From assembly GCF_056746865.1 (NCBI RefSeq), contig NZ_CM163382.1: DNA of 64,000 nucleotides, one strand, 5' to 3'. The position numbers were made by a program, and so were the translations under genes. This document shows positions 7,286 to 63,434 of the stretch, one piece after another. How positions within the stretch are numbered: position 1 is the stretch's first letter; each line of letters opens with the position of its first letter. The notes below the pieces were generated by a model. It saw only the letters and a program-made list of their open reading frames with translations. It ran no database searches and was not told the origin of the DNA.

Positions 7286-8822
7286 TCAGGCGGGCAGAGT
7301 AACCCGCCACGGGAGCAGAGCACCCACCCGGTTCACAGGCCAGTCGGCGATGACATCAAGTACATGATGCAGATAGCGTTCCGGATCCACGCCGTTTAAT
7401 TTGCACGTCCCGATAAGACTGTACAGTGACGCACCGCGCTCACCACCATGATCCGAGCCGAAGAACAGCCAGTTTTTTCTCCCCAGACTGACCAGTCGTA
7501 GGGCGTTTTCGGCAATGTTATTATCCACCTCCACCCAGCCATCTTCTGCATAGCGGGTCAGCGCCGGCCACTGGTTCAGCGCATACCCGAACGCCTTCGC
7601 CAGTTCTGAGTGCCTTGAGAGGGTTTTCTGTTTCTCCCGCAGCCACCCCTCCAGTGACGCCAGCAGCGGCAGCACTTTTTGGTGCCGGACTGCCTGCCGT
7701 TCCTCTGCTCTTTTACCTCTGAGCTCCGACTCGATGGCATACAGCTCGCCGATCCGTTTCAGCGCCTCCTCCGTCAGGGCTGACGGGGTACGGACGTGAA
7801 CATCGTGGATTTTTCGGCGGGCATGGGCCCAGCACGCGGCTTCCTTTATATGGCCGTCGCGGTAGAGCTCGTTGAACCCGGCGTAGGCATCAGCCTGCAG
7901 TACGCCACTGAAGCCTGCAAGATGGGTCTGAGGGTGGATACCTTTTCTGTCCGGGCTGTAAGCGAACCACACTGCGGGGGCCAGCGCTGATCCGGCGTTG
8001 CGGTCGTCTCGAACGTACGTCCATAAGCGCCCGGTCTTCGTCTTCTTATTGCCCGGCAACAGCACCGGGACAGGCATATCGTCAGCATGGAGTTTGCCGT
8101 CGGTCAGGACATAGTGCTGAAGGGCTTCATCCAGCGGTGCCAGCAGACGACAACACGCATCCACCCAGCCCGACAGTACAGAACGACTCAACACTACACC
8201 CTGGCGGGCATAGATCTCCGACTGGCGATACAGCGGTATGTGCTCTGCATACTTTGAGGTCAGCACTCGGGCCAGCAGCCCCGGTCCGGCGATCCCCCGT
8301 TCGATGGGGCGCGAAGGAGCCGGGGCCTGAACGATGCGATCGCACCGACGGCAGGCATGCTTTTCACGGACTGTCCGGATAACCCGGAAGGCGCTGCGCA
8401 TCAGCTCCAGCTGTTCGGCGGCATCCTCACCCAGGTAACTCAGCGAACCACCGCACTCCGGGCAACACGGCTCAGTCGGCAGCAGCCGCTTCTCATCCCG
8501 TGGGAGTGACTCAGGGAACGGTTTGCGGGTGCGGGTCTGACGCAGCGGGCGCTGCACTGCCGGGTCATCCACCCGGCCGGTCAGCGTATCGCTTTCCTGC
8601 TGCAGCAGGTTCAGGTCAGCTTCCATTTGCGCGATACGGCGGGATACCTTTTCGGAACGACTGCCGAAGTTCATCCGGCGCAGCTTATCCAGTTGCGCCT
8701 GCAGATGGTCTATTTCGCGTTCCCGGTTGCTCAGCTTTTCCTGCAGGGCGTGGATCAACGCTTCCTGGTTCGGCCAGGCGCTGTTTCAGCAGAAGGATGT
8801 CGTCAGAAGAGGTGTCGTTCAT
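7286..8822 (-). pseudogene. tnpC: IS66 transposase TnpC with a frameshift about 17 codons from the start
   Basis: ORF 7286..8758 is the IS66 TnpC body. The N-terminus MNDTSSDDILLLKQRLAE is encoded from 8822 in another frame, with one extra C near 8770 (gaaccaggaagcg). Confidence 0.65.
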
Positions 8823-8871
8823 AAGCCTGTATTTTACCAGGCTTATTCTGCGACAACCAGGATAAAGAGCG

Positions 8872-9219
8872 CTACAACATGGTCAGGGATGTCAGTAACC
8901 GCTTTGGCTGTCGCCAGTCGATACCTTCCATCAGCATCGCCAGTTGCGCCGGCGTCAGGAACACTTTGCCATCGCGGGCTGAGGGCCAGGCGAAGCGACC
9001 ACGTTCTAGTCGCTTTGTCAGCAGGCACAGACCATCGCCGGTGGACCAGAGCAGTTTTACCTGACTGCCGCTGCGTCCCCGGAAGATGAAGACGTGGCCG
9101 GACATCGGGTCATCTTTCAGCGCGGTCTGCACCTTTGCGGCGAGGCCATTGAAGCCGTTGCGCATATCGGTGATACCGGCAACCAGCCAGATTTTTGTGC
9201 CTGCGGGAAGATTTATCAT
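8872..9219 (-). CDS. tnpB: IS66 family accessory protein TnpB
   Basis: 115-aa ORF MINLPAGTKIWLVAGITDMRNGFNGLAAKVQ..., typical IS66 Orf2. Confidence 0.85.
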   Translation of the reverse strand: MINLPAGTKIWLVAGITDMRNGFNGLAAKVQTALKDDPMSGHVFIFRGRSGSQVKLLWSTGDGLCLLTKRLERGRFAWPSARDGKVFLTPAQLAMLMEGIDWRQPKRLLTSLTML

Positions 9220-9599
9220 ACAGGCCCCCGCATCAGTTCGCGCAGGACAGTGCTCATGAGTTCAGCAGAGGGATGAGTCAGTGTTATTTCTCCTCCCCGA
9301 CATTTTATGTGGCAGGTAGCGGGAGGAGAGCAGGATGGTAGTTCGAAGGTTGGGAGAGAAGAGCCCGCCTGAAGCTGCACGGGTATCAGGGCAGGAAGCG
9401 ACGATGAGTTTTTTCGGGGCCGACAGACCCGCCCTTCACGCTGCCAGAGCCTTATCCATTTAAAGAGCAGGTTATCATTGACGTCATGTTTCCGGGCCAG
9501 TGCGGCAATACTGCCTTCTTCTTCAAGAGCCAGCCTGACCAGTTCCATTTTGAATTCAGGGGAATAGTGTTTCCGGGGAAGTCTTTCTTTAGCGCGCAT
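9216..9599 (-). CDS. tnpA: IS66 family accessory protein TnpA
   Basis: 127-aa ORF with HTH-like N-terminus, overlapping the tnpB start by 4 nt. Confidence 0.75.
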   Translation of the reverse strand: MRAKERLPRKHYSPEFKMELVRLALEEEGSIAALARKHDVNDNLLFKWIRLWQREGRVCRPRKNSSSLPALIPVQLQAGSSLPTFELPSCSPPATCHIKCRGGEITLTHPSAELMSTVLRELMRGPV

Positions 9600-12401: not shown

Positions 12402-12637
12402 ATGAATCCGTCTGATGCCATTGAGGCAATTGAAAAACCGCTCTCCTCCCTGCCTTACTCACTTTCCCGTCACATCCTGGAACATCTGCGCAAACTCACC
12501 AGTCACGAACCCGTGCCTGGCATTATGGGTAAAAGCGGGGCCGGTAAATCCTCACTCTGTAATGCGCTGTTTCAGGGGGAGGTCACCCCGGTCAGTGATG
12601 TTCACGCCGGCCCCCGGGAAGTGCAGCGCTTCCGTCT
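12402..12637 (+). pseudogene. YeeP/YfjP-like small GTPase gene, N-terminal part (interrupted by IS21-family element)
   Basis: P-loop GKSGAGKSS, then ...REVQRFRL at the insertion junction. Confidence 0.7.
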
Positions 12638-12839
12638 TGCAAAATGGCATCTGAATCGATCGCAGTTTGGCATTCGAATCGATCATGATTTGGCATCCAT
12701 CTCCGATCACAGTTTGGCATCACAATCGATCACGATTTGGCATGCTTCCGATCATTGATTGGCATCCTGCCAGTCACTCCGGGAATTAACTCTTTTCACC
12801 ACAGTCTCCATTGCCGTGTTTAAACCAGTGGAGACGTCA

Positions 12840-14405
12840 ATGTCCAGAAAGAGAAAATCCAGGAGCACTATGGAAACCTGTTTTAAGATTCTTCAGCTCA
12901 AGTTCGACAAGAAGCTGACTAACCGTTGTATCGGACTGACGTTACACATCAGCGCCTCAACCGTTTTTGAGGTTCTTGCCCGCTTCAAAGCCTCTTCTCT
13001 GTCATGGCCATTACCTGCTGATATATCCCATGACACGCTGGAGAAACTCATTTTTCCGCCCAAAGACACCTTTGCATCAGAGCTTGTAATGCCTGACATG
13101 TTGTACCTCGATACGGAAATGAGAAAACCAGGTGTGACGCGGCAACTGTTGTGGATGGAATACAAGGCACAGGCGGGTAACAAAGCGATGGGATACTCGC
13201 ACTTCTGCCGTTGCTACCGGGAGTGGAAAAAAACGCGACGTCTCTCCATGCGCCAGGAGCATCGTGCCGGCGAAAAGCTTTTTATCGACTTCTGTGGTCC
13301 TACGGTTCCTGTTATTAATCCGGACACCGGTGAGATACGCCGCGTGGCAATCTTCGTGGCCGTAATGGGGGCGTCCAACTATACCTACGTTGAAGCGTGC
13401 GAAGGTCAGGACATGATGTCATGGTTAAATGCCCACAGCCGTTGCCTGACCTTCCTGGGCGGCGTACCGAAGCTGCTCATCCCCGATAACCTCAGAAGCG
13501 CAGTGAAAAAGGCCGATCGATATGAGCCTGTCATCAACGACAGTTATCAGGCACTGGCTGAGCACTATGGCACGGTTATCATCCCGGCCCGACCACGCAA
13601 ACCTAAAGATAAACCAAAAGCAGAAAACGGCGTCCTCATCGTCGAACGATGGCTTCTTGCCCGCATCCGTAATGAAACCTTCCACACGCTCAGGGCGCTG
13701 AATGCGCGCCTTAGGGAGTTACTGACAGACATGAATAACCGGCCAATGAAGGGGTACGGCAATCAAACCCGTGCAGAACGCTTCCGCATACTGGATGCGC
13801 CAGCACTCTCTCCGCTGCCTCTGGCACCTTATGAATACACGGAATACAAAGCTGTGAAGGTTGGCCCTGACTACCACGTTGAATATGCCCGTCACTGGTA
13901 CTCCGTTCCACACGAACTGGTCGGTCAGCGTCTGTCACTGAAGGCGGGGCAGTCGGTGGTACAGCTCTGGCACAAGGGGCAGTGTGTGGCGCAACATCCG
14001 CGCAGCACACATGAATATAAACACACAACCAATCCGCTTCACATGCCAGAGCGCCACCGGCAGCACGGGACATGGACACCGGAACGCCTGATCGAGCAGG
14101 GAAAACGTACGGGCCCGTCCACAGGCCGGGTGGTTGAATCCATGCTGAAGGCAAAACCCCATCCGGAACTGGCTTATCGTGCAGTTCTGGGGCTGCTGGC
14201 ACTTCAGAAAAAATACGGCCCGGAACGGCTGGAAAAGGCCTGTTACGTTGCCCTGCACTATAACGCCCCTGACAGACGCTTTATCGACAATCTGCTGCGT
14301 CACCATCGGGAGAACCTGGAGCTTCCATTATCCCGCCAGGGCGAACAACATCCGGCATATGCTTCAGAGCATGAAAACCTGCGTGGTCCGGGCTACTACC
14401 ACTGA
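12840..14405 (+). CDS. istA: IS21-family transposase IstA
   Basis: Long ORF with GGAG ribosome-binding site before ATG 12840; lies between IS21-type ends, directly upstream of an IstB-like gene. Confidence 0.7.
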   Translation: MSRKRKSRSTMETCFKILQLKFDKKLTNRCIGLTLHISASTVFEVLARFKASSLSWPLPADISHDTLEKLIFPPKDTFASELVMPDMLYLDTEMRKPGVTRQLLWMEYKAQAGNKAMGYSHFCRCYREWKKTRRLSMRQEHRAGEKLFIDFCGPTVPVINPDTGEIRRVAIFVAVMGASNYTYVEACEGQDMMSWLNAHSRCLTFLGGVPKLLIPDNLRSAVKKADRYEPVINDSYQALAEHYGTVIIPARPRKPKDKPKAENGVLIVERWLLARIRNETFHTLRALNARLRELLTDMNNRPMKGYGNQTRAERFRILDAPALSPLPLAPYEYTEYKAVKVGPDYHVEYARHWYSVPHELVGQRLSLKAGQSVVQLWHKGQCVAQHPRSTHEYKHTTNPLHMPERHRQHGTWTPERLIEQGKRTGPSTGRVVESMLKAKPHPELAYRAVLGLLALQKKYGPERLEKACYVALHYNAPDRRFIDNLLRHHRENLELPLSRQGEQHPAYASEHENLRGPGYYH

Positions 14406-14421
14406 CAGAAGGAACAACAGT

Positions 14422-15177
14422 ATGAGTGATAACCTGTTAAACAAACTGACCCAACTGAAACTCCCGGCGATGGCCGGGAGCCTGATACGGCAGCGGGAAA
14501 CGCCTCAGACCTACGACGAACTGTCGTTCGAGGAAAGGCTGACGCTGCTGGTTGATGACGAGCTTCTGAGCAGGGAAAACAGCCGTGTGGCACGGTTGAG
14601 AAAAAATGCCGGCCTGAAATACCAGGCAACACCGGAAGGGCTGCGCTATCCGGCCTCAAGAGGTCTGCGGGCTGAACAGATGAGAGAACTGCTGAACGGC
14701 CACTACATAACCCACAGGAAAAACCTGCTGATAACCGGTCCGACAGGATGTGGCAAGAGCTGGATAGCCAATGCGCTGGGCGAACAGGCATGTCGACAGA
14801 AACACAGCGTCCGGTACTGTAGAACCGGGCGATTACTGGAACAACTGGCTCAGGGACGTGTTGATGGCAGCTGGCTGAAATATCTGAAACAGTTGCAAAA
14901 AATACAGGTTCTAATCCTGGACGATCTGGGGCTGGAACAGTTAAGTAACGCCCAGTGTAATGACCTTCTGGAGCTCATAGAGGATCGTTACGGACAAAGC
15001 AGCACGATAGTGGTAAGCCAGTTCCCGGTAGATAAATGGCATGGTCTGATGGAGAACCCAACAACAGCAGATGCCATCCTGGACAGACTGGTACATAACT
15101 CACACCGGGTGGTCCTTCAGGGAGAGTCACTGAGGAAAAATCCCCCGGTAGTGGAAAGCAGCGAAAAAACGCGTTAA
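14422..15177 (+). CDS. istB: IS21-family helper ATPase IstB
   Basis: Walker A LITGPTGCGKS and Walker B VLILDDLG motifs; ATG 14422 with AGGAA upstream. Confidence 0.85.
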   Translation: MSDNLLNKLTQLKLPAMAGSLIRQRETPQTYDELSFEERLTLLVDDELLSRENSRVARLRKNAGLKYQATPEGLRYPASRGLRAEQMRELLNGHYITHRKNLLITGPTGCGKSWIANALGEQACRQKHSVRYCRTGRLLEQLAQGRVDGSWLKYLKQLQKIQVLILDDLGLEQLSNAQCNDLLELIEDRYGQSSTIVVSQFPVDKWHGLMENPTTADAILDRLVHNSHRVVLQGESLRKNPPVVESSEKTR

Positions 15178-15276
15178 AAAGCGGTAGAAAAAGTTAAGTT
15201 CCCGGTTGATCGAATGGATGCGAATCGCTGATCGGACTTCGATGCCAATCCGTGATCGAATAGAGCGGAATACGCA

Positions 15277-15920
15277 TCCGTCTGAATGGCCATGGTCACA
15301 GCATGGTTATCACTGACCTGCCCGGGGTGGGCGAGAGCCGGGACAGGGATGCAGAGTATGAAGCCCTGTACCGTGACATTCTGCTCGAACTGGACCTGGT
15401 ACTGTGGCTGATTAAAGCCGATGACCGTGCCCTGTCTGTGGATGAGTATTTCTGGCGACACATCCTGCACCGGGGACATCAGCGGGTACTGTTTGTGGTG
15501 ATGCAGGCCGATAAAACGGAGCCCTGCCATGAATGGGATATGGCCGGTATTCAGCCTTCTCCCGCACAGGCACAGAACATTCGCGAAAAAACGGAGGCGG
15601 TATTCCGTCTGTTCCGGCCCGTACATCGGGTTGTTGCCGTATCGGCCCGCACCGGCTGGGAACTGGATACGCTGGTCAGTGCGCTCATGACAGCACTTCC
15701 CGACCATGCCGCCAGTCCCCTGATGACCCGCCTGCAGGACGAGCTGCGCACGGAGTCTGTCCGGTCTCAGGCCCGTGAACAGTTTACCGGTGCGGTGGAC
15801 CGGATATTTGACACGGCGGAGAGCGTCTGCATTGCCTCTGTTGCACGCACGGTTCTGCGCGCCGTCCGTGACTCGGTGGTCTCTGTTGCCCGCGCGGTAT
15901 GGAACTGGATTTTCTTCTGA
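15277..15920 (+). pseudogene. YeeP/YfjP-like small GTPase gene, C-terminal part
   Basis: Continues the split GTPase: G3 motif DLPGVGES, then LVLWLIKADDR and VLFVVMQADK. Confidence 0.7.
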
Positions 15921-16040
15921 ACCCGGTGGTGATGTACCAGGCTGTTGTTACAGATTTTTAACTCCATGAAAACACTATGCAAACGCAGCCATACCCGGGT
16001 TGTCCCCTTGCGTTGTGTTTCTCAAGTTAATAGAATACAT

Positions 16041-16077
16041 CGATCGTTACTATCATATCGATCGTTATAAACGATCG
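16041..16077 (+). promoter_or_regulatory. cluster of three GATC (Dam) sites embedded in repeated CGATCGTT motifs, 60 bp upstream of the dynamin-like gene
   Basis: GATC at 16060-16063 and 16073-16076, with a third at about 16042; each inside a cgatcg palindrome (catcgatcgttact...atcgatcgttataaacgatcgttt). Confidence 0.5.
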
Positions 16078-16137: not shown

Positions 16138-18534
16138 ATGCACGAAAAGAACATCGCCCTGCTTTGTGATGAAGCCGACCGACTTTTGCAACTGAACATT
16201 AATCTGCTCCGGCAAATGGTTGAGGAGCCAGATGTGTTATCTGACAGTAAGAACGAAAACAGACTGCTTTTTGATAAACAGAAAGCACTGAAAAGAATTG
16301 AGGAGCTGGAGGGCGAACAAATCAAAACCGCCCGCAGGGAGATGGTGCTGGCTGTTGTCGGCACGATGAAAGCAGGCAAATCAACCACCATCAACGCCAT
16401 TGTGGGGCAGGAAATTCTGCCTAACCGTAACCGCCCCATGACCTCTGTACCGACGCTCATCCGCCACGTTCCCGGAAAAACTGAGCCGGTTCTCCATCTG
16501 GAACATATTCAGCCTGTCCGCAATTTATTAATCACACTGCAGGAAAAACTCGCCACCCCGGCAGGACAGCAGGTCGCACAGACCCTGCAGCAAACCGGGG
16601 ATACCCGCGAACTGCTGGATATTCTGACGGATGATGGCTGGCTCAAAAATGAATACCACGGGGAGGAGGAAATCTTTACCGGACTGGCATCGTTAAACGA
16701 TCTGGTTCGTCTTGCTGCGGCAATGGGGACTGAATTTCCTTTTGATGAATACGCAGAAGTGCAGAAACTGCCGGTGATCGACGTGGAATTCAGCCATCTG
16801 GTGGGGATGGATGCATGCCAGGGAACACTCACACTGCTGGATACCCCCGGCCCTAATGAGGCCGGACAACCGCAGATGGAAGTGATGATGCGGGATCAAC
16901 TGCAGAAAGCCTCTGCGGTTCTGGCTGTGATGGATTACACCCAGATGAACTCAAAAGCGGATGAAGACGTCCGTAAAGAGCTTAATGCCATTGCTGACGT
17001 ATCAGCCGGCCGCCTGTTTGTACTGGTCAATAAATTTGATGAGAAAGACCGCAATGGCGATGGGGCAGATGCCGTACGCCAGAAAGTTCCGGCAATGCTG
17101 AACAGCGATGTGCTGCCCGCCTCCCGCGTTTATCCCGGATCCTCACGCCAGGCATACCTGGCTAACCGTGCGCTTCATGAGTTACGGAAAAACGGAACCC
17201 TTCCTGTTGATGAAGCCTGGGTCGATGATTTTATCAGAGGTGCCTTCGGTTGCATGAAAAAAGAATACGTCTGTAAAGACAGTGAACTGGCAACTGAAGG
17301 GGCGACAGACCTGTGGGAAGGCTCACTTATCGATCAACTGATAACGGAAGTCATACAGAGCTCACATTCCAGAGCTGCGGCACTGGCGGTTGACTCTGCC
17401 GCCGCAAAACTGATGCAGAATGCAGAAAATATCAGTGAATACCTGTTGTTACGCCATCAGGGGCTACAGCAAAGCATTCAGTCACTGCAGTCGCATATCA
17501 CCAGCCTGCTTGCGGATATCCGGGAAATCGCGGACTGTCAGGAGCAGATGACCACTGATGTCAGAATGGCCATGGAGGAGATCGATACTAAAACCCGGGA
17601 ATTACTGACGGGGGTCTGCACCTCACTGGAAGAGGAGCTGAATGACTATTTCAGAAGCGGTAAACGCAAAGAACAGCAAATGCTGGAGGAAGAAGACGCA
17701 GAACAACGAAGGTCTCAGTCCGGATTATGGGGGAAAATTTCTCAATGGTCCGGTATCAACAACCAGGGCCGGGAGGATTACAGGAAACGAGATTTTGCCC
17801 CGGACAGCCCCGAAATAAAATTCAGTGATCGCAGGGAAGCCCTTGAACTGATGACGCAAATCGAATCGACCGTGACCAGCCTGCACCGTGAGGCTGAAGC
17901 ACAGTTCCGGCCTGAGCTGGAGAAAATCGTCAGCGGGATTGAAACAGGTTTTCGTGGCACGGCCCTGTACGCCACAGAAAACATTGCCGGTCGCATCAAT
18001 GCCCGCCTGGAGGATGAGGGCTTTACCGTAAAAATCAGTTTTCCGGCAGTCAGCCAGTTACAGACCCGGCTCGCGGTAAAAATAAATCTGAGTGCGCTTA
18101 TGGAGGAAAGAACGGAGACCGTCACCCGTCGCCGTCGGCAGAGTGGCGTATGGGGAACCGTTTGTCGATGGTTTGGCACCAGTGACCTGGGCTGGGAAAA
18201 CTATGACGAGGATGTGAGTCGCAGCGTGATCAATATCAACAAGGTCAGAGAGGAAGTTATGTCACTGACCCGGGCATATTTCGGGGAGCTGCAGGCATCC
18301 ATTGAGCAGGATATTAACCAGCCCGTCCGCCAGGAAATCGATGCCTTTTTCTGCGCATTCAGGGAGAAAGTTGAACAACTGCGTAACACGCTGATTCAGA
18401 GCTCTGAAGATCATAAACGCGATCAGCAGGCGCAGGAACGGCTTACCGGGCGACTTCAGGCATTAAATGAAAGGGTTCCTGAGCTCATTACTGACAGTAA
18501 GGCGCTGAGGGAAGAGCTGGAGACAATGCTGTGA
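16138..18534 (+). CDS. dynamin-like GTPase, CrfC/YjdA-like (798 aa)
   Basis: G1 P-loop GTMKAGKST, G2 Thr in MTSVPT, G3 DTPG, G4 NKFD, in dynamin order, followed by a long helical region. N-terminal block MVLAVVGTMKAGKSTTINAIVGQEILPNRNRPMT closely matches recalled E. coli CrfC. AGGAAGG ribosome-binding site. Confidence 0.85.
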   Translation: MHEKNIALLCDEADRLLQLNINLLRQMVEEPDVLSDSKNENRLLFDKQKALKRIEELEGEQIKTARREMVLAVVGTMKAGKSTTINAIVGQEILPNRNRPMTSVPTLIRHVPGKTEPVLHLEHIQPVRNLLITLQEKLATPAGQQVAQTLQQTGDTRELLDILTDDGWLKNEYHGEEEIFTGLASLNDLVRLAAAMGTEFPFDEYAEVQKLPVIDVEFSHLVGMDACQGTLTLLDTPGPNEAGQPQMEVMMRDQLQKASAVLAVMDYTQMNSKADEDVRKELNAIADVSAGRLFVLVNKFDEKDRNGDGADAVRQKVPAMLNSDVLPASRVYPGSSRQAYLANRALHELRKNGTLPVDEAWVDDFIRGAFGCMKKEYVCKDSELATEGATDLWEGSLIDQLITEVIQSSHSRAAALAVDSAAAKLMQNAENISEYLLLRHQGLQQSIQSLQSHITSLLADIREIADCQEQMTTDVRMAMEEIDTKTRELLTGVCTSLEEELNDYFRSGKRKEQQMLEEEDAEQRRSQSGLWGKISQWSGINNQGREDYRKRDFAPDSPEIKFSDRREALELMTQIESTVTSLHREAEAQFRPELEKIVSGIETGFRGTALYATENIAGRINARLEDEGFTVKISFPAVSQLQTRLAVKINLSALMEERTETVTRRRRQSGVWGTVCRWFGTSDLGWENYDEDVSRSVININKVREEVMSLTRAYFGELQASIEQDINQPVRQEIDAFFCAFREKVEQLRNTLIQSSEDHKRDQQAQERLTGRLQALNERVPELITDSKALREELETML

Positions 18535-19436
18535 CTTCACCATTTATTCAACAAATTGCTGATAACCGGGTATGTCAGGTACTCACCTGTCTTCCTGAAA
18601 AATTTGTGGTTGATTTCGCAAACGGAATCGATGTTGCACAGGAGCATATCCGCACGGCCGGAGAGCGCACGTTCTTCCGGCGTTTAAAAGAGGGGCTGAC
18701 CGGCGAAGGCGCTGCACGGCAGAATGCCATCAATGCGTCGCTTGCACAGGGCGTTGAGGCGTCCCTGCGCTGGCTGACGGAGATGACAACGTCACTTGCC
18801 ACCACAAACTACGCGATTACCCGGGTAAACGACAGGGTCAGTTCACTGGTCAGTGATACAGCCAGGCTGGCGCATTATTCCGCAGATACGCGGGAGCAGT
18901 TACTCACCCTGGCCGATCAGGTTCACCATAAACTGAATCATCTTGAAGAAAAACTCCACCGTGTTGACCAGGTTCAGCGGGCGCAGTTACATCTTGAGCA
19001 GATATTCTCATGGTGGAGCGCCGGGCGATATGCGTCATTTTCCCCTGCCGGACGTTGTTATGTGGCACTTGAAGAGCTTCGCTGGGGCGCGTTTGGTGAT
19101 GTGATACGTCAGAGCGAAACAGGCCAGGTTAACCAGCTACTGGATATTCTCAGACATAAAGCATTAACGCAGATGGCACAGGAGAGTGGCGGTAGTGCAA
19201 CCGTGCGTCTGAACACTCTGGACTGGCTTGGTGGTCAGGGCCGGGAGCAGGCAGATAACGAGTGGCATGACGCGATTAACTGGCTGGGAGACTGGTGCAG
19301 TGAAGAGCAGCATCCGGTGATCTGGTCAACCACGCAGGCTGCAGAACACTTACCGGTTCGCATGCCTCGCCTCTGCTCTGCAGAACGCCTCTCTGAAAGT
19401 ATGGTCGATGAAATATTTCAGAAGGGGGCTGCATGA
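18531..19436 (+). CDS. YjcZ-like partner protein of the dynamin-like GTPase (301 aa)
   Basis: GTG start overlaps the upstream stop (ctGTGA); GGAG 10 bp upstream. Size and position mirror the crfC-yjcZ pair; family assignment not verified. Confidence 0.55.
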   Translation: MTSPFIQQIADNRVCQVLTCLPEKFVVDFANGIDVAQEHIRTAGERTFFRRLKEGLTGEGAARQNAINASLAQGVEASLRWLTEMTTSLATTNYAITRVNDRVSSLVSDTARLAHYSADTREQLLTLADQVHHKLNHLEEKLHRVDQVQRAQLHLEQIFSWWSAGRYASFSPAGRCYVALEELRWGAFGDVIRQSETGQVNQLLDILRHKALTQMAQESGGSATVRLNTLDWLGGQGREQADNEWHDAINWLGDWCSEEQHPVIWSTTQAAEHLPVRMPRLCSAERLSESMVDEIFQKGAA

Positions 19437-20503
19437 GTACAGAAATGAAAACGGGGCTGGTGCTGTCCGGTGGCGGGGCGGTGGGCGCTTATCAGGCGGG
19501 AGTGGTTAAGGCACTGGCAGAGTGTGGTACACAGATCAGCATGGTTTCAGGGGCCAGCATTGGCGCATTCAATGGTGCCATTATCGCGGCCTCTCCCGAT
19601 CTGTCAGAAGCTGCCGTACGCCTGGAGGCGCTCTGGGATCATCTGGGGAATAATCAGGTGCTGTCGGTAAACAGATTGGTTTACTTTTCATTGCTGAAAA
19701 AATTGTTCCAGGCAATGAACCTCTGCCAGATCCCCGGACGTGCAGGAGCACTGCTTACGACGCTTCTTCGCCATATATCGACAATCAACGGGTTTGACAA
19801 TCTGATGGCTCAGCCGTTGTTGTCAGATGAGCCCCTGACAGCGCTGATGGATCATTATCTTGATACTGATGCTCTGGCAGACGGGCTACCGCTGTATGTG
19901 TCGCTGTACCCCACAGAAGGGGGCATGCAGGATATTATTGACTGCATTCGTGCTGAACTGGGTGTCGGAACCACGAAAAACGCCGTTTTTCAGCATATCC
20001 AGAGCCTGCCCCGCGGACAGCAGAAAGAGGCTCTGCTTGCGTCAGCCGCGCTGCCCCTGCTGTTCCGTCCCCGTGAGGTTCAGGGGACAATGTTCGGTGA
20101 TGGTGGTATGGGAGGATGGCGAAATATGCAGGGAAATACCCCTGTGACGCCTCTGGTCGATGCCGGATGCAATATGGTGATTGTGACGCATCTGAGTGAG
20201 GGTTCTTTATGGGATCGCCAGGCTTTTCCGGACACCACAATCCTTGAGATCCGTCCCCGGAAAAGGCTGAAATATGCAGGTGATGGTGGCAACAGCGGCG
20301 GTCTGCTCAGTTTTACATCGGCACATACCGACGCCTGGCGTCAGCAGGGCTATGAAGACACGATGCTGGCGATGGAGCATATCCGGAAACCGCTGGCAGC
20401 ACGTCAGGCACTGACCCGGTCAGAGGCGGTATTGCAGAAAAGCCTGGATATAACGGAAGAGGCAGATTTGGCACTGAGAAACGCGATGGCCCGGATTAAA
20501 TAA
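19433..20503 (+). CDS. patatin-like phospholipase (356 aa)
   Basis: Oxyanion motif LSGGGAVGAYQAG, nucleophile elbow G-A-S-I-G (Ser42, nt 19556-19558), catalytic Asp in FGDGG (Asp223, nt 20099-20101). ATG overlaps the upstream stop (gcATGA). Confidence 0.85.
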   Translation: MSTEMKTGLVLSGGGAVGAYQAGVVKALAECGTQISMVSGASIGAFNGAIIAASPDLSEAAVRLEALWDHLGNNQVLSVNRLVYFSLLKKLFQAMNLCQIPGRAGALLTTLLRHISTINGFDNLMAQPLLSDEPLTALMDHYLDTDALADGLPLYVSLYPTEGGMQDIIDCIRAELGVGTTKNAVFQHIQSLPRGQQKEALLASAALPLLFRPREVQGTMFGDGGMGGWRNMQGNTPVTPLVDAGCNMVIVTHLSEGSLWDRQAFPDTTILEIRPRKRLKYAGDGGNSGGLLSFTSAHTDAWRQQGYEDTMLAMEHIRKPLAARQALTRSEAVLQKSLDITEEADLALRNAMARIK

Positions 20504-22790: not shown

Positions 22791-22871
22791 TGCCGTTTCC
22801 CTGAGTGAGGGAATCATTCAGCTTTCGTTCCTGAAAAACACACATTTATTTGTTATTTAAGGAGTTATCTC

Positions 22872-23351
22872 ATGAAAACCGTTTCTCAGAATACCCCCAC
22901 AATTTATTCAGCTACAACACCAGAGAATAATCCGCCTCAGTTGGTTGCCAGCCTCGTCCCTGATGAACAGCGCATCAGCTTCTGGCCGCAGCATTTTGGC
23001 CTCATTCCACAGTGGGTGACCCTGGAGCCCCGTGTCTTCGGCTGGATGGACCGTCTGTGCGAAGACTACTGCGGTGGTATCTGGAATCTGTACACCCTGA
23101 ACAACGGCGGGGCATTTATGGCACCCGAACCGGATGACGATGATGACGAAACATGGGTACTGTTCAATGCCATGAACGGTAACCGCGCAGAAATGAGCCC
23201 GGAAGCCGCCGGTATTGCCGCCTGTCTGATGACGTACAGTCATCATGCCTGTCGTACGGAGAATTATGCCATGACGGTCCATTATTACCGGTTGCGGGAT
23301 TACGCCCTGCAGCATCCGGAATGCAGCGCCATTATGCGCATCATCGACTGA
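22872..23351 (+). CDS. antirestriction protein, KlcA/ArdB family (YfjX/YeeS-region paralog)
   Basis: 159-aa ORF with acidic stretch PEPDDDDDETW, typical of this family and position. Confidence 0.7.
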   Translation: MKTVSQNTPTIYSATTPENNPPQLVASLVPDEQRISFWPQHFGLIPQWVTLEPRVFGWMDRLCEDYCGGIWNLYTLNNGGAFMAPEPDDDDDETWVLFNAMNGNRAEMSPEAAGIAACLMTYSHHACRTENYAMTVHYYRLRDYALQHPECSAIMRIID

Positions 23352-24663: not shown

Positions 24664-25037
24664 ATGAAAACATTACCTGTATTACCCGGGCAGGCGGCCA
24701 GTTCTCGCCCGTCTCCTGTTGAAATCTGGCAGATACTGCTGTCCCGACTGCTGGACCAGCACTATGGCCTCACACTGAATGACACACCTTTTGCCGATGA
24801 ACGTGTGATTGAGCAGCATATTGAGGCAGGCATTTCACTGTGTGATGCGGTGAACTTTCTCGTGGAAAAATACGCGCTGGTGCTACCGACCAGCCGGGAT
24901 TCAGCGCCTGTACCCGCTCTCAGTTAATAAACAGCATCGATATCCTCCGGGCTCGCAGGGCGACCGGCCTGATGACCCGCGACAATTACAGAACGGTAAA
25001 TAACATTACCCTGGGTAAGTATCCGGAGGCGAAATGA
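24664..25037 (+). pseudogene. cbtA: CbtA/YeeV-family toxin gene with a 1-bp deletion (frameshift)
   Basis: N-terminal 80 aa match CbtA, then the frame breaks near 24883 (gtgctaccgac where gtgcgtaccgac is expected). The canonical C-terminus INSIDILRARRATGLMTRDNYRTVNNITLGKYPEAK is present in the +1 frame, ending at 25037. Confidence 0.7.
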
Positions 25038-56550: not shown

Positions 56551-57670
56551 ACATAATCTCAATTATCTTTTTTGCCCAATTGTCCCAATGCAATATTTTA
56601 TTATATCTAACTCTTGCGTTTTGGGAGTAGTTTTGATAAGTCTCTACGGAGCTAATTATTTTATGAATTGCATTTCCAAAGTGCTTATAGTCTGACGAGT
56701 CTTTAATTAATATCCCCGTCCTTTCGTTGATAACTATAGAACTAATTCCACCTGTATCTGTGGCGACAACTGGCAATCCATAAGCTGCAGCTTCACAAAA
56801 TACCATTCCGTAACATTCAGCAATGGTTGGTAAAAGAAGTATATCAGCGTTAGATAACACATCGATGAATTTCTGATATTCTTCAACGTTATTTTTATTT
56901 ATTTTATCAATTAATTCAACCCAAGCAGGTAAAATCTCTTGATTCGGAGTACATCCACAAATTTTTAGTCTAACATCGATCCCATATAACTCTCTTACAT
57001 ATTCAATTGCTTTCAATGCTGTTTTACCACCTTTTCTTTCCCAATCGACCCCCAAGAAAAGACAAGTATAACTAATCTTTTGAATTATAGTTTTATTAGC
57101 AAAATGAATATCTTCAAATAAATTAGCCCCCCATGGTATTTCAACTAATTTATCAGAATCCAATCTGTAATAGTCCTTGCAAAAATCCATTGCCCATTTA
57201 GATGGGAAAGATACGACTGTTGCTTTTTCAATAGCCTTGCGTTCGATTAAACTTGCATCCTCATCATTTATAATTGTTTTTTTATTTAAATTCGGATAAT
57301 AGTTTTTTAATTGATCATATGTTGTATCCGATAGATATATTATTGGTATATTTGTTTCTAAAAAAGCAATTTGTGAAGAACCTGCAGGTGCAATAATAAA
57401 ATCCAAACCATCAATTTTTTTTAATTTTCTCTCAAATATTCTACCGTAATACTTGGAAAGCAACTTCGAACGACTATAATCATATTCCTTTCCGAAACAC
57501 CTTAATATTAATTTATATGCTTTTAACATGTATACCATATAGCTATTTACCGGTCCTAATATTTCAATGGAAATATTTCTCTTCGATAATGCCTTTAGCA
57601 TATAATAAGGTGTGCCAGACCAACTGGATGTAGATAGTGGATCATAAGCAGATAAAAAAGCCACTTTCAT
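56522..57670 (-). CDS. GT4-family glycosyltransferase
   Basis: 382-aa ORF with the C-terminal region typical of retaining GT4 enzymes. Confidence 0.7.
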   Translation of the reverse strand: MKVAFLSAYDPLSTSSWSGTPYYMLKALSKRNISIEILGPVNSYMVYMLKAYKLILRCFGKEYDYSRSKLLSKYYGRIFERKLKKIDGLDFIIAPAGSSQIAFLETNIPIIYLSDTTYDQLKNYYPNLNKKTIINDEDASLIERKAIEKATVVSFPSKWAMDFCKDYYRLDSDKLVEIPWGANLFEDIHFANKTIIQKISYTCLFLGVDWERKGGKTALKAIEYVRELYGIDVRLKICGCTPNQEILPAWVELIDKINKNNVEEYQKFIDVLSNADILLLPTIAECYGMVFCEAAAYGLPVVATDTGGISSIVINERTGILIKDSSDYKHFGNAIHKIISSVETYQNYSQNARVRYNKILHWDNWAKKIIEIMYEHKNRRTK

Positions 57671-57736
57671 TAAATACCCTTTAATAACATATCAAACTAT
57701 ACATTTATTTAATAACACCATCATTAAATGCATATT

Positions 57737-58702
57737 CTAATGGCATTTGCTACCTTTATTTCGTTTGAAGTTAAACATAACATTCAAACATCTTTTCATC
57801 TTATTAAACTCACCTCTTCTAGCACGGTTAAATGCTACAACAAAGAGTGACAACCATACCGTCCAATAATATTGTGGATAAAACTTTTCTGTAATGACCA
57901 GCCTATTTTTTATTGAACAAAGGTCAGCTATCATACTCTTTCCCCCATCAGTACTTGCACCTATCTTATGATAAACCAAACTATCTGAGCAAATACCTAA
58001 TTTAAAGTTCTTTGCTTTTGCTCTGAGGCAAATATCTAACTCTTCATAGTATAAAAAATATTCTTCATTCATCAATCCAACTGTTTCCAAACATTCTCTA
58101 GAGAAAAACATTGATGCGCCAATTATATAATCTATATTATTGCTAATGACTTCATCATCATATTTTTTGGAAACTAATCTTCCCATCTCATAATTTTTTG
58201 TAGTGCATAACCATCTGTAATGTACCCCACCCAGTCCTTGCTGCATCTCTCTATCGGTAAAATAGACTAAACGAGAACCGCAAATCCCTATATTTTTATC
58301 TGAATCACATTTACTAATTAAATGAGTTAAAGCCTCTTTATCCACTTCAGTATCATTATTCAGAACCCAGACGTATTTCATATCCTCCTGATTAAGTGCG
58401 AGCTCTATTCCAATGTTATTACCACTTGCGTACCCATTATTTTTCGGAGATTGTATTAATATGATTTTATCGTTTTCTAATGTTTGATATTTACTTCTAT
58501 CCTCATACTTCACCTCAATGAAACTTTTACCAGTAATATATAATGCATTAAGATTTTCTTTTATAGAATCATATGAGTTATCCGTAGAACAGTTATCAAC
58601 AACGATAATTTTATAATCATCATAATTTAAATTCATTAAACTTTTAACACAATTAATGGTATCTATAGCCCCATTCCAATTTAACACTACAATATATATC
58701 AT
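57737..58702 (-). CDS. GT2-family glycosyltransferase
   Basis: MIYIVVLNWNGAIDTINCVKSL...VDNCSTDNS, the GT2 N-terminal signature. Confidence 0.8.
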   Translation of the reverse strand: MIYIVVLNWNGAIDTINCVKSLMNLNYDDYKIIVVDNCSTDNSYDSIKENLNALYITGKSFIEVKYEDRSKYQTLENDKIILIQSPKNNGYASGNNIGIELALNQEDMKYVWVLNNDTEVDKEALTHLISKCDSDKNIGICGSRLVYFTDREMQQGLGGVHYRWLCTTKNYEMGRLVSKKYDDEVISNNIDYIIGASMFFSRECLETVGLMNEEYFLYYEELDICLRAKAKNFKLGICSDSLVYHKIGASTDGGKSMIADLCSIKNRLVITEKFYPQYYWTVWLSLFVVAFNRARRGEFNKMKRCLNVMFNFKRNKGSKCH

Positions 58703-59979
58703 CAGGCTACCCTTTTTTTCATAAGATTATTACAACGATAACTCATATAAAAAAGCATCAAAAAATCAATTATCACTCGAATTGTCCATAACCACGCCAC
58801 ACCAATAACCCCACATTCCTTTGAAATTATATATAACATTATCAAATAAGGAATAAATTCCATCATATGGATGTATGCAGTGTATTTTGCTTTTCCAAAT
58901 GCCTGTATATTGGCAAAAGAGATTTGTGAATAACAGTTAAAGATATACCCTATAAGCATAATCCGTAATATTTCGACTGAAATCCCTGCATACTCAGCCC
59001 CCATCCACAATGTTAAAATAAACTTTGCGTAGTAATATATAAATAAAACCAAAGGCAATACAATGACAGTCATTAATATATACGCTTTTTTTTGTTCTGC
59101 ATATGACGCTGTAAAACTACTTGCATGGCTTAATTTTGGAAAAACAGCTTTCCCAAGAGAGCCTGGAACTATTCCAAGCCTAGTTACCAGCTCATTAGGG
59201 ACTGTATAGAATGATATTTTTGATGCTCCCTGGATATGAGATAGAATAAATCTATCCATACTCGCTAATATAGGAGATATTATGTTACTTATAGTTACCC
59301 ACCCGCCATATCTAAATAACCGTTTTAAAACAGTTATTGAAAAAAATGAAATATCGATAGTTATTCTTTTCCTGCTCATAATGTAGCTTAACCACAAGCA
59401 TATAACTCTTGCAATAGCTACACCAATAATTGCAGAAAAAAGTGTTTGATTAATTAAAACAAATAATGCAGGCAACCCTGCAATTAAAGAATTCCCTAAA
59501 CTTTTTTGTATATTTAGGATTCCAAAATATTCCCGCCCCTCAAGCTCTGCTAATAGTATTTGCGTGACTAAGAATACAGGTATCAGAGATGATAATAATA
59601 TTAGAGACTTTATCGCATCGACGTAGTATATTGGTGACATATTTAACAGTTCAATAATATGGTCTTTAAGCAGAAACACTCCCCCGCCTCCGATACCCCC
59701 TAAAAATACCACAGCAATAATAGAAGTTACTATTATCGTATTACAATCGTCCAGTCTGTTTTTTAGTAATGCTATTTCGCGTACTACAGCTCTTGTTAAC
59801 CCAGCATCAAATATACTAGCATACCCTATAAAAATCATTGATAAAGTATACAAACCAAATAGTTCTACACCAATTTCCCTTGCAATTAATCCAAACGCTG
59901 GGATTGCAATTAATGTTGGTATAAAGTAGCCCGCAACATTCCATATACTATGTTTTAAGAGAGACATTTCAATACTCAC
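58702..59979 (-). CDS. wzx: O-antigen flippase Wzx
   Basis: 425-aa, 12-transmembrane-type protein immediately after rmlC. Confidence 0.8.
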   Translation of the reverse strand: MSIEMSLLKHSIWNVAGYFIPTLIAIPAFGLIAREIGVELFGLYTLSMIFIGYASIFDAGLTRAVVREIALLKNRLDDCNTIIVTSIIAVVFLGGIGGGGVFLLKDHIIELLNMSPIYYVDAIKSLILLSSLIPVFLVTQILLAELEGREYFGILNIQKSLGNSLIAGLPALFVLINQTLFSAIIGVAIARVICLWLSYIMSRKRITIDISFFSITVLKRLFRYGGWVTISNIISPILASMDRFILSHIQGASKISFYTVPNELVTRLGIVPGSLGKAVFPKLSHASSFTASYAEQKKAYILMTVIVLPLVLFIYYYAKFILTLWMGAEYAGISVEILRIMLIGYIFNCYSQISFANIQAFGKAKYTAYIHMMEFIPYLIMLYIISKECGVIGVAWLWTIRVIIDFLMLFYMSYRCNNLMKKRVA

Positions 59980-60511
59980 TTAGTTCTAATTTTTCCCCAT
60001 TTGCATCCTTATCAGACAGAGTAATCAGTGCTGTCCTTGGCCATTTAATATTAAGCAAGGGGTCATTCCAGATAATATTTCGTTCATGTGATGGAGCATA
60101 ATATTGATTCGTTTTATATAAAACTTCTGCTAAATCACTAAGTACCAAAAATCCATGAGCAAATCCTTCAGGTATCCACAACTGACGCTTGTTCTCAGCA
60201 GACAAATTCACCCCAACCCATTTCCCAAATGTACCTGACGATTTACGAATATCAACTGCTACATCAAAAACCTCACCGACCACACAACGAACTAATTTAC
60301 CTTGAGCATAAGGTTCCAGCTGATAGTGCAATCCGCGTAATACACCCTTAATTGATTTAGAATGGTTATCCTGAACAAATTCAACCTTACGCCCTACAGC
60401 CTCTTCGAAAACTTTCTGATTAAAGCTTTCCATAAAAAAACCGCGCTCATCACCAAAAACTTCCGGTTCCAAAATTAATACATCAGGAATTTCAGTTTTA
60501 ATTACATTCAT
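59969..60511 (-). CDS. rmlC: dTDP-4-dehydrorhamnose 3,5-epimerase
   Basis: MNVIKTEIPDVLILEPEVFGDERGFFMESF... Confidence 0.95.
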   Translation of the reverse strand: MNVIKTEIPDVLILEPEVFGDERGFFMESFNQKVFEEAVGRKVEFVQDNHSKSIKGVLRGLHYQLEPYAQGKLVRCVVGEVFDVAVDIRKSSGTFGKWVGVNLSAENKRQLWIPEGFAHGFLVLSDLAEVLYKTNQYYAPSHERNIIWNDPLLNIKWPRTALITLSDKDANGEKLELSEY

Positions 60512-60513
60512 TT

Positions 60514-61392
60514 TTAGTAACCTTTAATCATTTTTAGCAGATACTGACCATAAGCATTTTTCTTTAGTGGTTCTGCTAATACATTAACCTGCTCAGCGTC
60601 AATAAAGCCTTTACGATAAGCAATTTCTTCCGGGCAAGATACCTTTAAACCTTGTCGCTCTTCAATTGTTGCAATGAAGTTACTTGCTTCAATCAGACTT
60701 TGATGTGTCCCCGTGTCTAACCATGCATAACCACGGCCCATCATGGCAACAGATAAACGCCCCTGTTCCATATAGACACGGTTAATATCGGTAATTTCCA
60801 GTTCACCACGGGCAGAAGGCTTAAGGTTTTTCGCCATTTCCACAACGTCGTTATCATAGAAATAAAGCCCGGTTACCGCATAATTACTTTTTGGTTGTAA
60901 CGGTTTTTCTTCCAAGCTGATTGCAGTACCGTTTTTATCAAACTCAACGACACCATAGCGTTCAGGATCATTTACGTGATAGGCAAATACCGTTGCACCA
61001 CTTTCTTTGTTAACAGCGGCATCCATTAACCTCGGCAGATCGTGACCGTAAAAGATATTATCACCAAGAATCAAAGCACAATCATCACCACCAATAAACT
61101 CTTCACCGATAATAAATGCCTGCGCAAGCCCATCTGGAGTCAGTTGCACTTTGTACTGAAGATTTAGCCCCCACTGGCTACCGTCACCCAGCAGTTGTTG
61201 AAAACGAGGAGTATCCTGTGGCGTACTAATAATCAAAATATCGCGAATACCCGCCAACATCAGTGTAGAGAGCGGGTAATAGATCATCGGTTTATCATAA
61301 ATCGGTAATAGCTGTTTACTGACTGCCATAGTCACAGGATAAAGACGAGTACCAGAACCACCCGCTAAAATAATACCCTTACGCGTTTTCAT
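60514..61392 (-). CDS. rmlA: glucose-1-phosphate thymidylyltransferase
   Basis: [60 protein letters not shown]... Confidence 0.97.
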
Positions 61393-61449
61393 TTCATCAT
61401 TCCTTTTAATTCATCTTGCTCCATCATCACGAACAAGATGCAAAAACTA

Positions 61450-62349
61450 TTAAATTGCTGTAGTCGTAAATAATTCGTTGAGCATGCGTTTCACACCAAC
61501 CTGCCAGTCAGGCAAGACAAGCGCAAAATTCTGCCGAAATTTTTCTGTATTAAGTCGAGAGTTATGTGGACGACAAGCTGGTGTAGGATAGGCTGTCGTT
61601 GGTACCGCATTGAGTTTGTTGAGTGCGAGGGGAATATCTGCTTTGCGCGCCTCTTCAAAAACCAGCGCAGCATAATCGTACCAGGTCGTGGTACCACTGG
61701 CTACCAGATGGTACAAGCCTGCGACATCCGGTTTATTCAGTGCGACACGAATGGCATGTGCTGTACAATCGGCCAGAAGCTCAGCACCCGTTGGTGCGCC
61801 AAATTGATCGTTTATCACAGCCAACTCTTCGCGTTCTTTTGCCAGACGCAACATCGTTTTGGCAAAATTATTTCCTTTACCAGCGTATACCCAGCTGGTA
61901 CGGAAAATAAGATGCTTTGCGCAATGTTCTTGTAACGCTTTTTCCCCAGCTAGCTTAGTTTCACCGTAAACATTTAGCGGCGCTGTTGCATCCGTTTCCA
62001 GCCATGGCCTGTCACCACTGCCAGGGAAAACATAATCGGTGGAGTAGTGTATAACCCAAGCTCCAACTTCATTTGCTGCTTTCGCAATCGCTTCGACACT
62101 TGTTGCGTTAAGTAATTGTGCAAACTCCGGTTCTGATTCTGCTTTGTCTACTGCGGTGTGAGCGGCTGCGTTGACAATAATATCAGGCCGAATGCTTCTT
62201 ACGGTTTCAGCTACACCTTCAGGATTACTAAAATCACCACAGTAATCAGTGGAGTGAACATCAAGAGCAATCAAATTACCCAAAGGTGCCAGAGCACGCT
62301 GTAGTTCCCAACCTACCTGCCCTGTTTTGCCGAATAGGAGGATATTCAT
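61450..62349 (-). CDS. rmlD: dTDP-4-dehydrorhamnose reductase
   Basis: [33 protein letters not shown]... Confidence 0.95.
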   Translation of the reverse strand: MNILLFGKTGQVGWELQRALAPLGNLIALDVHSTDYCGDFSNPEGVAETVRSIRPDIIVNAAAHTAVDKAESEPEFAQLLNATSVEAIAKAANEVGAWVIHYSTDYVFPGSGDRPWLETDATAPLNVYGETKLAGEKALQEHCAKHLIFRTSWVYAGKGNNFAKTMLRLAKEREELAVINDQFGAPTGAELLADCTAHAIRVALNKPDVAGLYHLVASGTTTWYDYAALVFEEARKADIPLALNKLNAVPTTAYPTPACRPHNSRLNTEKFRQNFALVLPDWQVGVKRMLNELFTTTAI

Positions 62350-63434
62350 TACTGGCGGCCCTCATAGTTCTGTTCAATCCACGATTGATAGGCGCCACTT
62401 TTCACATTATCAACCCATTTTGTATTGGACAGGTACCATTCCACCGTCTTTCGAATCCCGCTCTCAAACGTTTCTTGCGGTTTCCAGCCCAATTCACGGC
62501 TAATTTTATCGGCATCGATCGCATAACGGCGATCATGCCCTGGGCGATCAGCAACATAAGTAATTTGCTCACGATAAGATTTCTCTTTCGGTACAATCTC
62601 ATCCAGCAAATTACAAATAGTGAGCACTACATCAATGTTTTTCTTTTCGTTGTGCCCACCAATGTTATAAGTTTCACCCGCTTTACCTTCGGTTACGACG
62701 GTATATAATGCACGCGCATGATCTTCAACATACAGCCAATCACGAATTTGATCCCCTTTGCCATAAATAGGTAATGCCTTACCTTCCAGAGCATTAAGAA
62801 TTACTAGTGGAATCAATTTTTCCGGAAAGTGATAAGGACCGTAGTTATTCGAACAGTTAGTCACAATGGTCGGTAAACCATAGGTACGTTTCCACGCGCG
62901 GACTAAATGATCGCTGGATGCTTTGGATGCGGAATAAGGGCTGCTTGGTGCGTAAGCTGTTGTCTCAATAAATAAGGGTAATTTTTCTTTATTATTTACT
63001 TCGTCAGGATGAGGCAAATCACCATAGACTTCGTCAGTAGAAATATGATGAAAACGGAAGCTATTTTTCTTGTCGCTATCAAGAGCAGACCAGTAATTGC
63101 GAGCAGCTTCCAAAAGGACATAAGTACCAACAATATTGGTTTCAATAAATGCCGCAGGGCCTGTAATTGAACGGTCAACATGGCTTTCAGCAGCCAGGTG
63201 CATCACTGCATCCGGCTGATGCTGAGAAAAAATTCGCGCCATTGCAGCAGCATCGCAAATATCCGCATGTTCAAAAACATAGCGTTCAGAATCAGAAACA
63301 TCAGCAAGTGATTCCAGGTTTCCGGCGTACGTTAATTTATCGACATTAACAACACTATCCTGCGTATTATTTATAATGTGACGAACTATAGCAGAACCAA
63401 TAAATCCTGCGCCACCAGTAACAAGTATCTTCAC
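62349..63434 (-). CDS. rmlB: dTDP-glucose 4,6-dehydratase
   Basis: [43 protein letters not shown]... Confidence 0.97.

Follow-up and report, generated by a model that had tools for sequence, protein, structure and literature searches.

A full-length, apparently functional ISSso4-type element of the IS21 family (2,639 bp) has almost certainly transposed into an intact GTPase gene of the yeeP type, at codon 79, in the CP4-44-equivalent island of an Escherichia coli chromosome, and no observation speaks against this reading. What we observed in the 64-kb stretch of DNA analysed here (the window) is a true, ordinary insertion of an already known element. The coordinates of its parts and of the interrupted gene are given in Table 1.

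Table 1. The inserted element, its flanking duplication and the two parts of the interrupted gene (positions in the window)
Feature	Position	Strand	Details
Complete IS21-family insertion sequence (ISSso4-type)	12638..15276	+	2,639 bp; 5'-TG...CA-3'; 52.6% G+C
Left terminal region	12638..12800	+	degenerate terminal repeat TGCAAAATGGCATC, five 18-mers CGATCANNRTTTGGCATC, then CCGGGAATTAAC
Right terminal region	15183..15276	-	inward from the end: degenerate repeat TGCGTATTCCGCTC, two 18-mers, then CCGGGAACTTAAC
istA, DDE transposase	12870..14405	+	511 aa, WP_023181050.1; alternative in-frame ATG at 12840
istB, AAA+ helper ATPase	14422..15177	+	251 aa, WP_001282653.1; NCBIfam, Pfam, Walker motifs
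Target-site duplication, left copy	12631..12637	.	from the sequence; single copy in empty-site genomes
Target-site duplication, right copy	15277..15283	.	direct sequence reading
yeeP-like GTPase, 5' fragment	12402..12637	+	codons 1-78 plus two nt of the next codon; no difference from the 5' part of WP_001069811.1 of genomes with an empty site
yeeP-like GTPase, 3' fragment	15284..15920	+	from the remainder of codon 79 through the stop codon; G3 DLPG present, no P-loop

The interrupted gene and its empty site

When the element was excised in silico so that one repeat was kept (12402..12637 joined to 15284..15920), an open reading frame of 873 nt (290 aa) was obtained, which runs without interruption through QRFRLNGHGHSMVITDLPG, exactly as the original prediction had written it. 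The restored protein carries the P-loop G1 motif GKSGAGKS (aa 43-50) upstream of the junction and the G3 motif DLPG (aa 90-93) downstream of it, and scores 49 bits against PF01926 MMR_HSR1 (cut-off 21.9). This domain upholds the assignment as a YeeP-like GTPase, as does the comparison with the CP4-44 cryptic prophage GTPase pseudogene yeeP of K-12 (b1999), which is 96.2% identical across the 3' 553 nt and occupies the equivalent island position, upstream of yeeS-yeeT-cbeA-cbtA-yeeW and tmaR-yeeA-sbmC. Synteny agrees, the island position here being next to tmaR-yeeA-sbmC-dacD-sbcB. In K-12 the first 320 nt of yeeP are missing, whereas the allele in the window is complete except for the insertion; the downstream cargo also differs, with dynamin-like, RdcB-like and patatin genes here and flu in K-12. 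The target is an intact homologue of the K-12 pseudogene yeeP in the CP4-44-equivalent island of the E. coli chromosome. In its present state, the 5' fragment reads through into the element and stops at 12756-12758, giving a chimeric product of 118 aa. The gene is thus split into an N-terminal fragment with only the P-loop, extended by 39 residues encoded by the element, and a C-terminal fragment without a P-loop, and is therefore inactivated.

The element is flanked by a direct repeat, TCCGTCT, which lies flush with it at both sides; the junction falls inside codon L79 of the GTPase gene. The repeat is exactly 7 bp long and cannot be extended (t versus a preceding it, t versus g following it). 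The word itself is not rare: the window contains five forward and two reverse copies where about eight are expected, and it also occurs at 12407 and 15604 in the same GTPase gene. The significance of the duplication therefore comes from its position flush with both termini. These were fixed independently, since ten other copies that are 100% identical drop homology at exactly 12638 and 15276, and the chance of an identical 7-mer abutting both ends is 4^-7 = 6e-5.

Natural empty sites were found in other strains. The restored sequence is identical at 1000 of 1000 positions, with one TCCGTCT, in at least 30 listed complete E. coli genomes, where the intact gene carries the annotation 'GTPase family protein' (WP_001069811.1). 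The closest relative (NZ_CM188248.1) matches exactly over 5,758 nt to the left and 25,870 nt to the right of the empty site and likewise holds one TCCGTCT. Between these alleles and the product of excision in silico there is 100% identity, which bears out the prediction of a precise insertion accompanied by a true 7-bp target duplication; an interrupted GTPase sequence without the element was found in none of the related genomes. Strain F11, considered as a same-serogroup comparator because of its identical O25 cluster, was dropped, as its version of the island lacks this GTPase gene. A search for the occupied junction (400 nt of flank plus 400 nt of the element) in 5,426 complete E. coli genomes gave no place covering at least 80% of it, and no insertion of the element at the same position of a yeeP paralogue was detected in that set. 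As the occupied junction is present in none of these genomes, the insertion is either a recent one or specific to this strain.

The surroundings were also scanned. Between 12300 and 16200, no sigma-70-like promoters, outward or inward, and no terminators were detected in the ends of the element, although such scans give weak evidence. The same scan, with the same reservation, placed one promoter-like site at 16027-16056, upstream of the dynamin gene, so that nothing here suggests polar effects on the genes downstream. The GTPase gene and its neighbours were considered as a known defence system and rejected as such, PADLOC giving only P-loop-level LeoBC matches (E = 1e-5 to 1e-4). The 64-kb window contains no tRNA gene, which puts the integration site of the island outside it.

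An ISSso4-type member of the IS21 family

Both open reading frames of the element are uninterrupted, as had been noticed from the sequence. IstA scores 285.7 bits against the NCBIfam equivalog NF033546 (transpos_IS21, cut-off 160), and IstB 257.8 bits against NF038214 (IS21_help_AAA, cut-off 200). In Pfam, IstA matches Mu-transpos_C_2 with 72.1 bits and rve with 32.1 bits, slightly below the cut-off of 32.6 for the latter, and IstB matches PF01695 IstB_IS21 with 205.7 bits. The candidate DDE residues of IstA (D140, D206 and E252) align with the catalytic motifs of IS5376 IstA, and the protein has an rve core and a Mu-transposase-C-like beta-barrel. IstB contains a Walker A motif (GPTGCGKS, aa 106-113) and a Walker B motif (LILDDLG, aa 164-170).

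The element begins with TGCAAA and ends with ACGCA. In its left end, the 18-mers CGATCANNRTTTGGCATC start at 12657, 12680, 12704, 12727 and 12749 on the plus strand, at spacings of 23, 24, 23 and 22, and together span 12657-12766. Those in the right end lie on the minus strand at 15241-15258 and 15217-15234, and this end matches the inner part of the left one imperfectly, in inverted orientation. The reiterated (T)TTGGCAT terminal repeats described earlier are thus real, with five 18-mers in the left end and two in the right, 22-24 bp apart. Elsewhere in the 64-kb window the 18-mer has only weak matches with 3-4 mismatches. The bare 8-mer TTTGGCAT is not enriched across the window; the non-random feature is its clustering at the end of the element, and only the longer 18-mer with its clustering carries meaning. 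Terminal repeats at 23-bp spacing are a feature of the IS21 family (PMC10122671), and those found here are presumed to be IstA binding sites. The assignment to this family accordingly stands on two proteins above their NCBIfam cut-offs and on TG...CA ends with imperfect inverted repeats composed of several direct repeats at intervals of about 23 bp.

ISSso4 is an ISfinder name for an IS21-family element first described from Shigella sonnei. A copy on the E. coli plasmid pCT, published under this name (PMC6361801), has the same length and ends and is 99.7% identical to the element (7 mismatches in 2,639). The IstB accession is one that PGAP labels 'IS21-like element ISSso4 family helper ATPase'. 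Plasmid copies from S. sonnei and E. albertii, whose IstA is PGAP-labelled 'ISSso4 family', are about 96% identical. The name is therefore indirect, resting on the PGAP label of an identical IstB and on the published label of the pCT copy. By the isoform rule, nucleotide identity to the reference sequence in ISfinder has to be at least 95%. Since identity to the S. sonnei plasmid copy is no higher than 96.1%, the element would be at best an isoform, probably the common one of E. coli and not necessarily the ISSso4 type sequence. ISEc12, another IS21-family element of E. coli, is similar in size and is inserted in the antirestriction gene of the same island in other strains, but it is a distinct element with other protein accessions and is not the one in this window.

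The structurally characterized relative is IS5376 of Geobacillus stearothermophilus (PDB 8b4h, 8q4d, 8q3w, 5bq5), which has in common with the element the istA-istB order, the DDE triad, the beta-barrel, the AAA+ Walker motifs, the 3'-CA ends and direct repeats at the termini, spaced by about 23 bp. Its proteins are distant in sequence (E = 2e-14 for IstA; E = 4e-24 for IstB, against the PDB structure). IstA has 511 aa here compared to about 400 aa in IS5376, the left end has a terminal repeat and five further repeats instead of L1/L2, and the target duplication is longer (6-7 bp versus 5 bp).

Mobility and alternative explanations

DNA 100% identical over exactly positions 1-2639 of the element is present in at least 25 other records, both chromosomal and plasmid-borne. 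A copy covering at least 80% of the element occurs in 225 genomes. The ten other identical copies mentioned above have unrelated flanks and the same ends; seven have a 6-bp duplication and two a 7-bp duplication. IS21-family target duplications range from about 4 to 8 bp. With both reading frames intact and identical DNA at many other sites, the element may still be mobile, as originally suggested.

It could be argued that the insertion is real but that the element has become a fossil that no longer moves, perhaps one that needs a tandem (IS21)2 junction or an absent host factor. It is present as a single copy in the 64-kb window, and single copies of IS21 transpose poorly compared to tandem duplicates. 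In addition, a consensus scan, weak evidence in itself, gave no sigma-70-like promoter upstream of istA, and one of the ten identical copies (L005) has no duplication. We nevertheless consider this improbable: istA and istB are not only uninterrupted but identical to WP_023181050.1 and WP_001282653.1, the identical copies are spread over many positions in chromosomes and plasmids, up to 34 in one genome, with duplications of their own in nine of the ten examined, and the empty site of the closest relative, embedded in over 31 kb of exactly matching sequence, implies very recent movement.

Copies of insertion sequences are a classic cause of misassembly, and the junction occurs in no other complete genome, so an assembler might have wrongly put a repeated element into the GTPase gene. 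A misjoin, however, would not give a perfect 7-bp duplication at the true ends of the element together with the exact empty-site sequence, and both junctions fit one transposition event, which makes an artefact very improbable. Even less credit can be given to the idea that the 7-mers are coincidental or pre-existing and that the element came with flanking DNA by homologous recombination. TCCGTCT is indeed a common word with further copies in the gene, but the empty-site alleles hold exactly one at this position, not the tandem TCCGTCTTCCGTCT, and are otherwise base-for-base identical. Homology to the other copies ends at the two termini, so no extra DNA was carried in. We consider this explanation refuted by the single-copy empty sites and the exact ends of homology.

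A proposed mechanism and its implications

By analogy with IS5376 (PMC10122671, PMC11208146), IstA tetramers would bind the 23-bp-spaced terminal repeats and synapse both ends, and ATP-bound IstB decamers would bend the target DNA, besides recruiting IstA and activating it. The target would then be attacked, with a 7-bp stagger, by the 3'-OH of the CA at each terminus, and gap repair would yield the TCCGTCT duplication. The putative IstA-site repeats in 23-bp phase number six on the left versus three on the right, compared to two per end in IS21 and IS5376. Together with the 6- or 7-bp duplications made by sequence-identical copies, this asymmetry might point to an ISSso4-type transpososome that is built asymmetrically, or to one in which the spacing of the cuts is more flexible than in the solved IS5376 complex, but we regard this as a speculative and unlikely reading. 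Weaker still is the suggestion that loss of the YeeP-type GTPase is selectable for the island, for example via the adjacent dynamin, RdcB-like and patatin genes.

Beyond annotation, the significance of this ordinary insertion is slight. The locus is better annotated as one GTPase pseudogene split by an ISSso4-type IS21-family element than as two hypothetical ORFs. Being absent from the 5,426 complete E. coli genomes, the insertion could serve as a marker specific to the strain. It is one further data point for the present activity of this element in E. coli chromosomes and plasmids, and shows that cryptic-prophage-like islands continue to decay by insertion sequence hits.

Insertion site and target duplication

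The original prediction of a 7-bp duplication was borne out: TCCGTCT occurs in two copies that abut a 2,639-bp segment (see table). Because the bases neighbouring the two copies differ on both sides, the repeat is exactly 7 bp long. The word is not rare, as it occurs seven times on both strands of the 64-kb window, which is about the expectation; its position flush with both element ends is non-random (4^-7 = 6e-5). The element starts with TGCAAAATGGCATC and ends with GCGGAATACGCA, i.e., 5'-TG...CA-3'.

When 12402-12637 was joined in silico to 15284-15920 with one repeat retained, an 873-nt ORF (290 aa) was obtained, which reads ...EVQRFRLNGHGHSMVITDLPGVGES..., as predicted for the restored GTPase frame. 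A 1,000-nt empty-site query (500 nt per side, single repeat copy) was matched unbroken and at 100% in at least 30 complete E. coli genomes among the matches listed, and the allele is annotated there as an intact 'GTPase family protein' (WP_001069811.1). The genome of isolate CE20 (NZ_CM188248.1), with one TCCGTCT at the empty site, shows zero mismatches to the window on either side of the junction (5,758 nt on the left, 25,870 nt on the right). For the occupied left junction, no place covering at least 80% of the query was found in any of 5,426 complete E. coli genomes. Since empty-site alleles are identical and the occupied junction is absent from these genomes, the insertion is real, precise, and recent or strain-specific.

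Features of the interrupted locus (window coordinates)
Feature	Coordinates	Description	Source
TCCGTCT, two copies	12631-12637; 15277-15283	target duplication
Element	12638-15276	IS21 family
18-mer, direct copies	12657-12766	five, left end
18-mer, inverse copies	15217-15258	two, right end
istA	12870-14405	511 aa, WP_023181050.1	PGAP annotation of identical copies
istB	14422-15177	251 aa, WP_001282653.1, 'IS21-like element ISSso4 family helper ATPase IstB'	PGAP annotation of identical copies
Dynamin-family protein	within 16138-20503	798 aa, downstream of interrupted GTPase
YjcZ/RdcB-like protein	within 16138-20503	301 aa
Patatin-like phospholipase	within 16138-20503	356 aa

The element and its copies

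Membership in the IS21 family was confirmed by scores above the NCBIfam cut-offs, with 285.7 bits for IstA against the equivalog transpos_IS21 (cut-off 160) and 257.8 bits for IstB against IS21_help_AAA (cut-off 200). IstA contains the Pfam domains rve and Mu-transpos_C_2, IstB contains IstB_IS21, and the closest solved structures are IS5376 IstA (8b4h, 8q4d) and IstB (8q3w, 8q4d, 5bq5). Both genes, described earlier as intact-looking, are indeed uninterrupted, with intact DDE motifs in IstA (LFID140F, LIPD206N, KAE252N) and intact Walker motifs (A, GPTGCGKS; B, LILDDLG). In istA, in-frame ATGs lie at 12840 and 12870, a distance of 10 codons, and a Shine-Dalgarno-like GGAG or AGGAG stands before each; PGAP takes the second ATG. 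The istA gene of IS21 has two in-frame starts that give two products, transposase and cointegrase, and the two ATGs here may be a parallel to this.

A full-length copy on plasmid pCT, listed as ISSso4 by Zhang et al. (PMC6361801), is 99.7% identical to the element (7 mismatches). Plasmids of S. sonnei and E. albertii carry copies with approximately 96% identity, whose IstA has the PGAP label 'ISSso4 family transposase'. The published name of the pCT copy and these labels therefore point to an ISSso4-type element, in its common E. coli isoform.

The reiterated terminal repeats could be resolved into an 18-mer, CGATCANNRTTTGGCATC, with five direct copies at the left end (spacing 23, 24, 23, and 22 bp) and two inverse copies at the right, plus a degenerate copy at each element end. 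Outside the termini, the 64-kb window holds just weak matches with 3-4 mismatches. In the characterised IS21-family system, IstA binds to multiple terminal direct repeats with a spacing of about 23 bp (PMC10122671). In an alignment, the right end corresponds to the two left repeats farthest from the terminus plus the adjacent CCGGGAA(N)TTAAC, so the left end resembles a right end extended by further repeat units.

Copies 100% identical over exactly 1-2639 were found in at least 25 records among the matches listed, both chromosomes and plasmids, and 225 genomes have a copy that spans 80% or more of the element's length, in up to 34 places per genome. Ten copies (L002-L011) were compared together with their flanks. 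All were identical to the window element and lost homology at the same two bases; they were flanked by direct repeats of unrelated sequence, 6 bp long in seven, 7 bp in two, and lacking in one. Thus, the element ends are fixed independently, and 6-7 bp is the usual duplication. The copy without duplication (L005, plasmid pEGY2) suggests a later rearrangement. Two unrelated sites (L004 and L009) share GTATCC as their duplicated hexamer. Isolated, 100% identical fragments of the left end (IS positions 1-34, 1-57, and 1-73; 34-73 bp) and the right end (2607-2639, 33 bp) occur on many E. coli and Klebsiella plasmids (H134-H145), where the remaining IS is lacking; deletions, or other insertions into older copies, probably left them behind.

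An assembly artefact is very unlikely, since the duplication at the true IS ends is perfect and a natural allele is exactly restored. The idea that the TCCGTCT repeat is coincidental, or that recombination brought the element in, is refuted by the single TCCGTCT of the empty-site alleles (the at least 30 genomes listed; NZ_CM188248.1) and by the common end points of the ten copies. It is possible that the insertion is real and this copy is now immobile, but the intact istA and istB ORFs and the DNA-identical copies at many sites disfavour this.

The interrupted GTPase gene and its island

An MMR_HSR1 GTPase domain (49 bits) was found in the restored protein, whose G1 motif spans aa 43-50 and G3 motif aa 90-93. 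The IS lies within codon 79 and, as originally stated, between the two motifs. The K-12 pseudogene yeeP (b1999) is 96.2% identical to the last 553 nt of the target gene. The island occupies the CP4-44 position and is followed by yeeS, yeeT, cbeA, cbtA, yeeW, tmaR, yeeA, sbmC, dacD, sbcB, the his operon, and the O-antigen cluster. Because of this identity and position, the YeeP-like gene is a full-length yeeP allele knocked out by the IS. Its 5' fragment reads into the IS and stops at 12758 (79 native and 39 IS-encoded residues), and the longest ORF of the 3' fragment (15303-15920) is without P-loop. A 217-bp stretch containing a promoter-like site separates the gene from the downstream dynamin-like, RdcB-like, and patatin genes.

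These three genes lie where K-12 CP4-44 has flu (Ag43). They were rejected as a recognised defence system; PADLOC gave just weak P-loop-level LeoBC matches. In the NZ_CM188248.1 region identical to window ~24664-25037, the annotation gives a frameshift in cbtA, which encodes the toxin of the CbtA/CbeA pair, and an intact cbeA. Further IS debris in the island (~7286-9548 and the left window end) is annotated by PGAP in that genome, where the sequence is identical or nearly so: an IS66-family unit with frameshifted tnpC and an ISL3 transposase gene interrupted by a stop codon. An IS3-family insertion is present in NZ_CM188248.1 and absent from the window. In other strains, ISEc12, a different IS21-family element, sits in the antirestriction gene of the island (9089-12154 of L016, a locus in NZ_CM192843.1, corresponding to window ~22870-23350), and their GTPase gene is intact.

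The O25-type O-antigen cluster (52000-64000) is 100% identical to that of strain F11 and others. F11 lacks the GTPase gene in its island, which is of a different version, and CE20, which matches the island and his region best, has an O131-type cluster; the source chromosome is therefore mosaic relative to every complete genome examined.

Probable transposition mechanism and novelty

By analogy with IS5376 (PMC10122671, PMC11208146), an IstA tetramer would synapse both ends via the terminal repeats, and ATP-bound IstB decamers would bend the target, bring in IstA, and activate it. The hydroxyls of the terminal 3'-CA would then attack at two target positions separated by 7 bp, and the TCCGTCT duplication would arise by repair after this staggered attack.

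Slightly unusual are the six repeats of the left end versus three at the right, and the fact that identical copies duplicate 6 or 7 bp. Both are variation within the family and probably already in ISfinder. The finding is correct, was well described in the original prediction, and is ordinary: previous knowledge covers the element, its family, its mechanism, and the gene family of the target, and just this insertion site is unrecorded among complete E. coli genomes.
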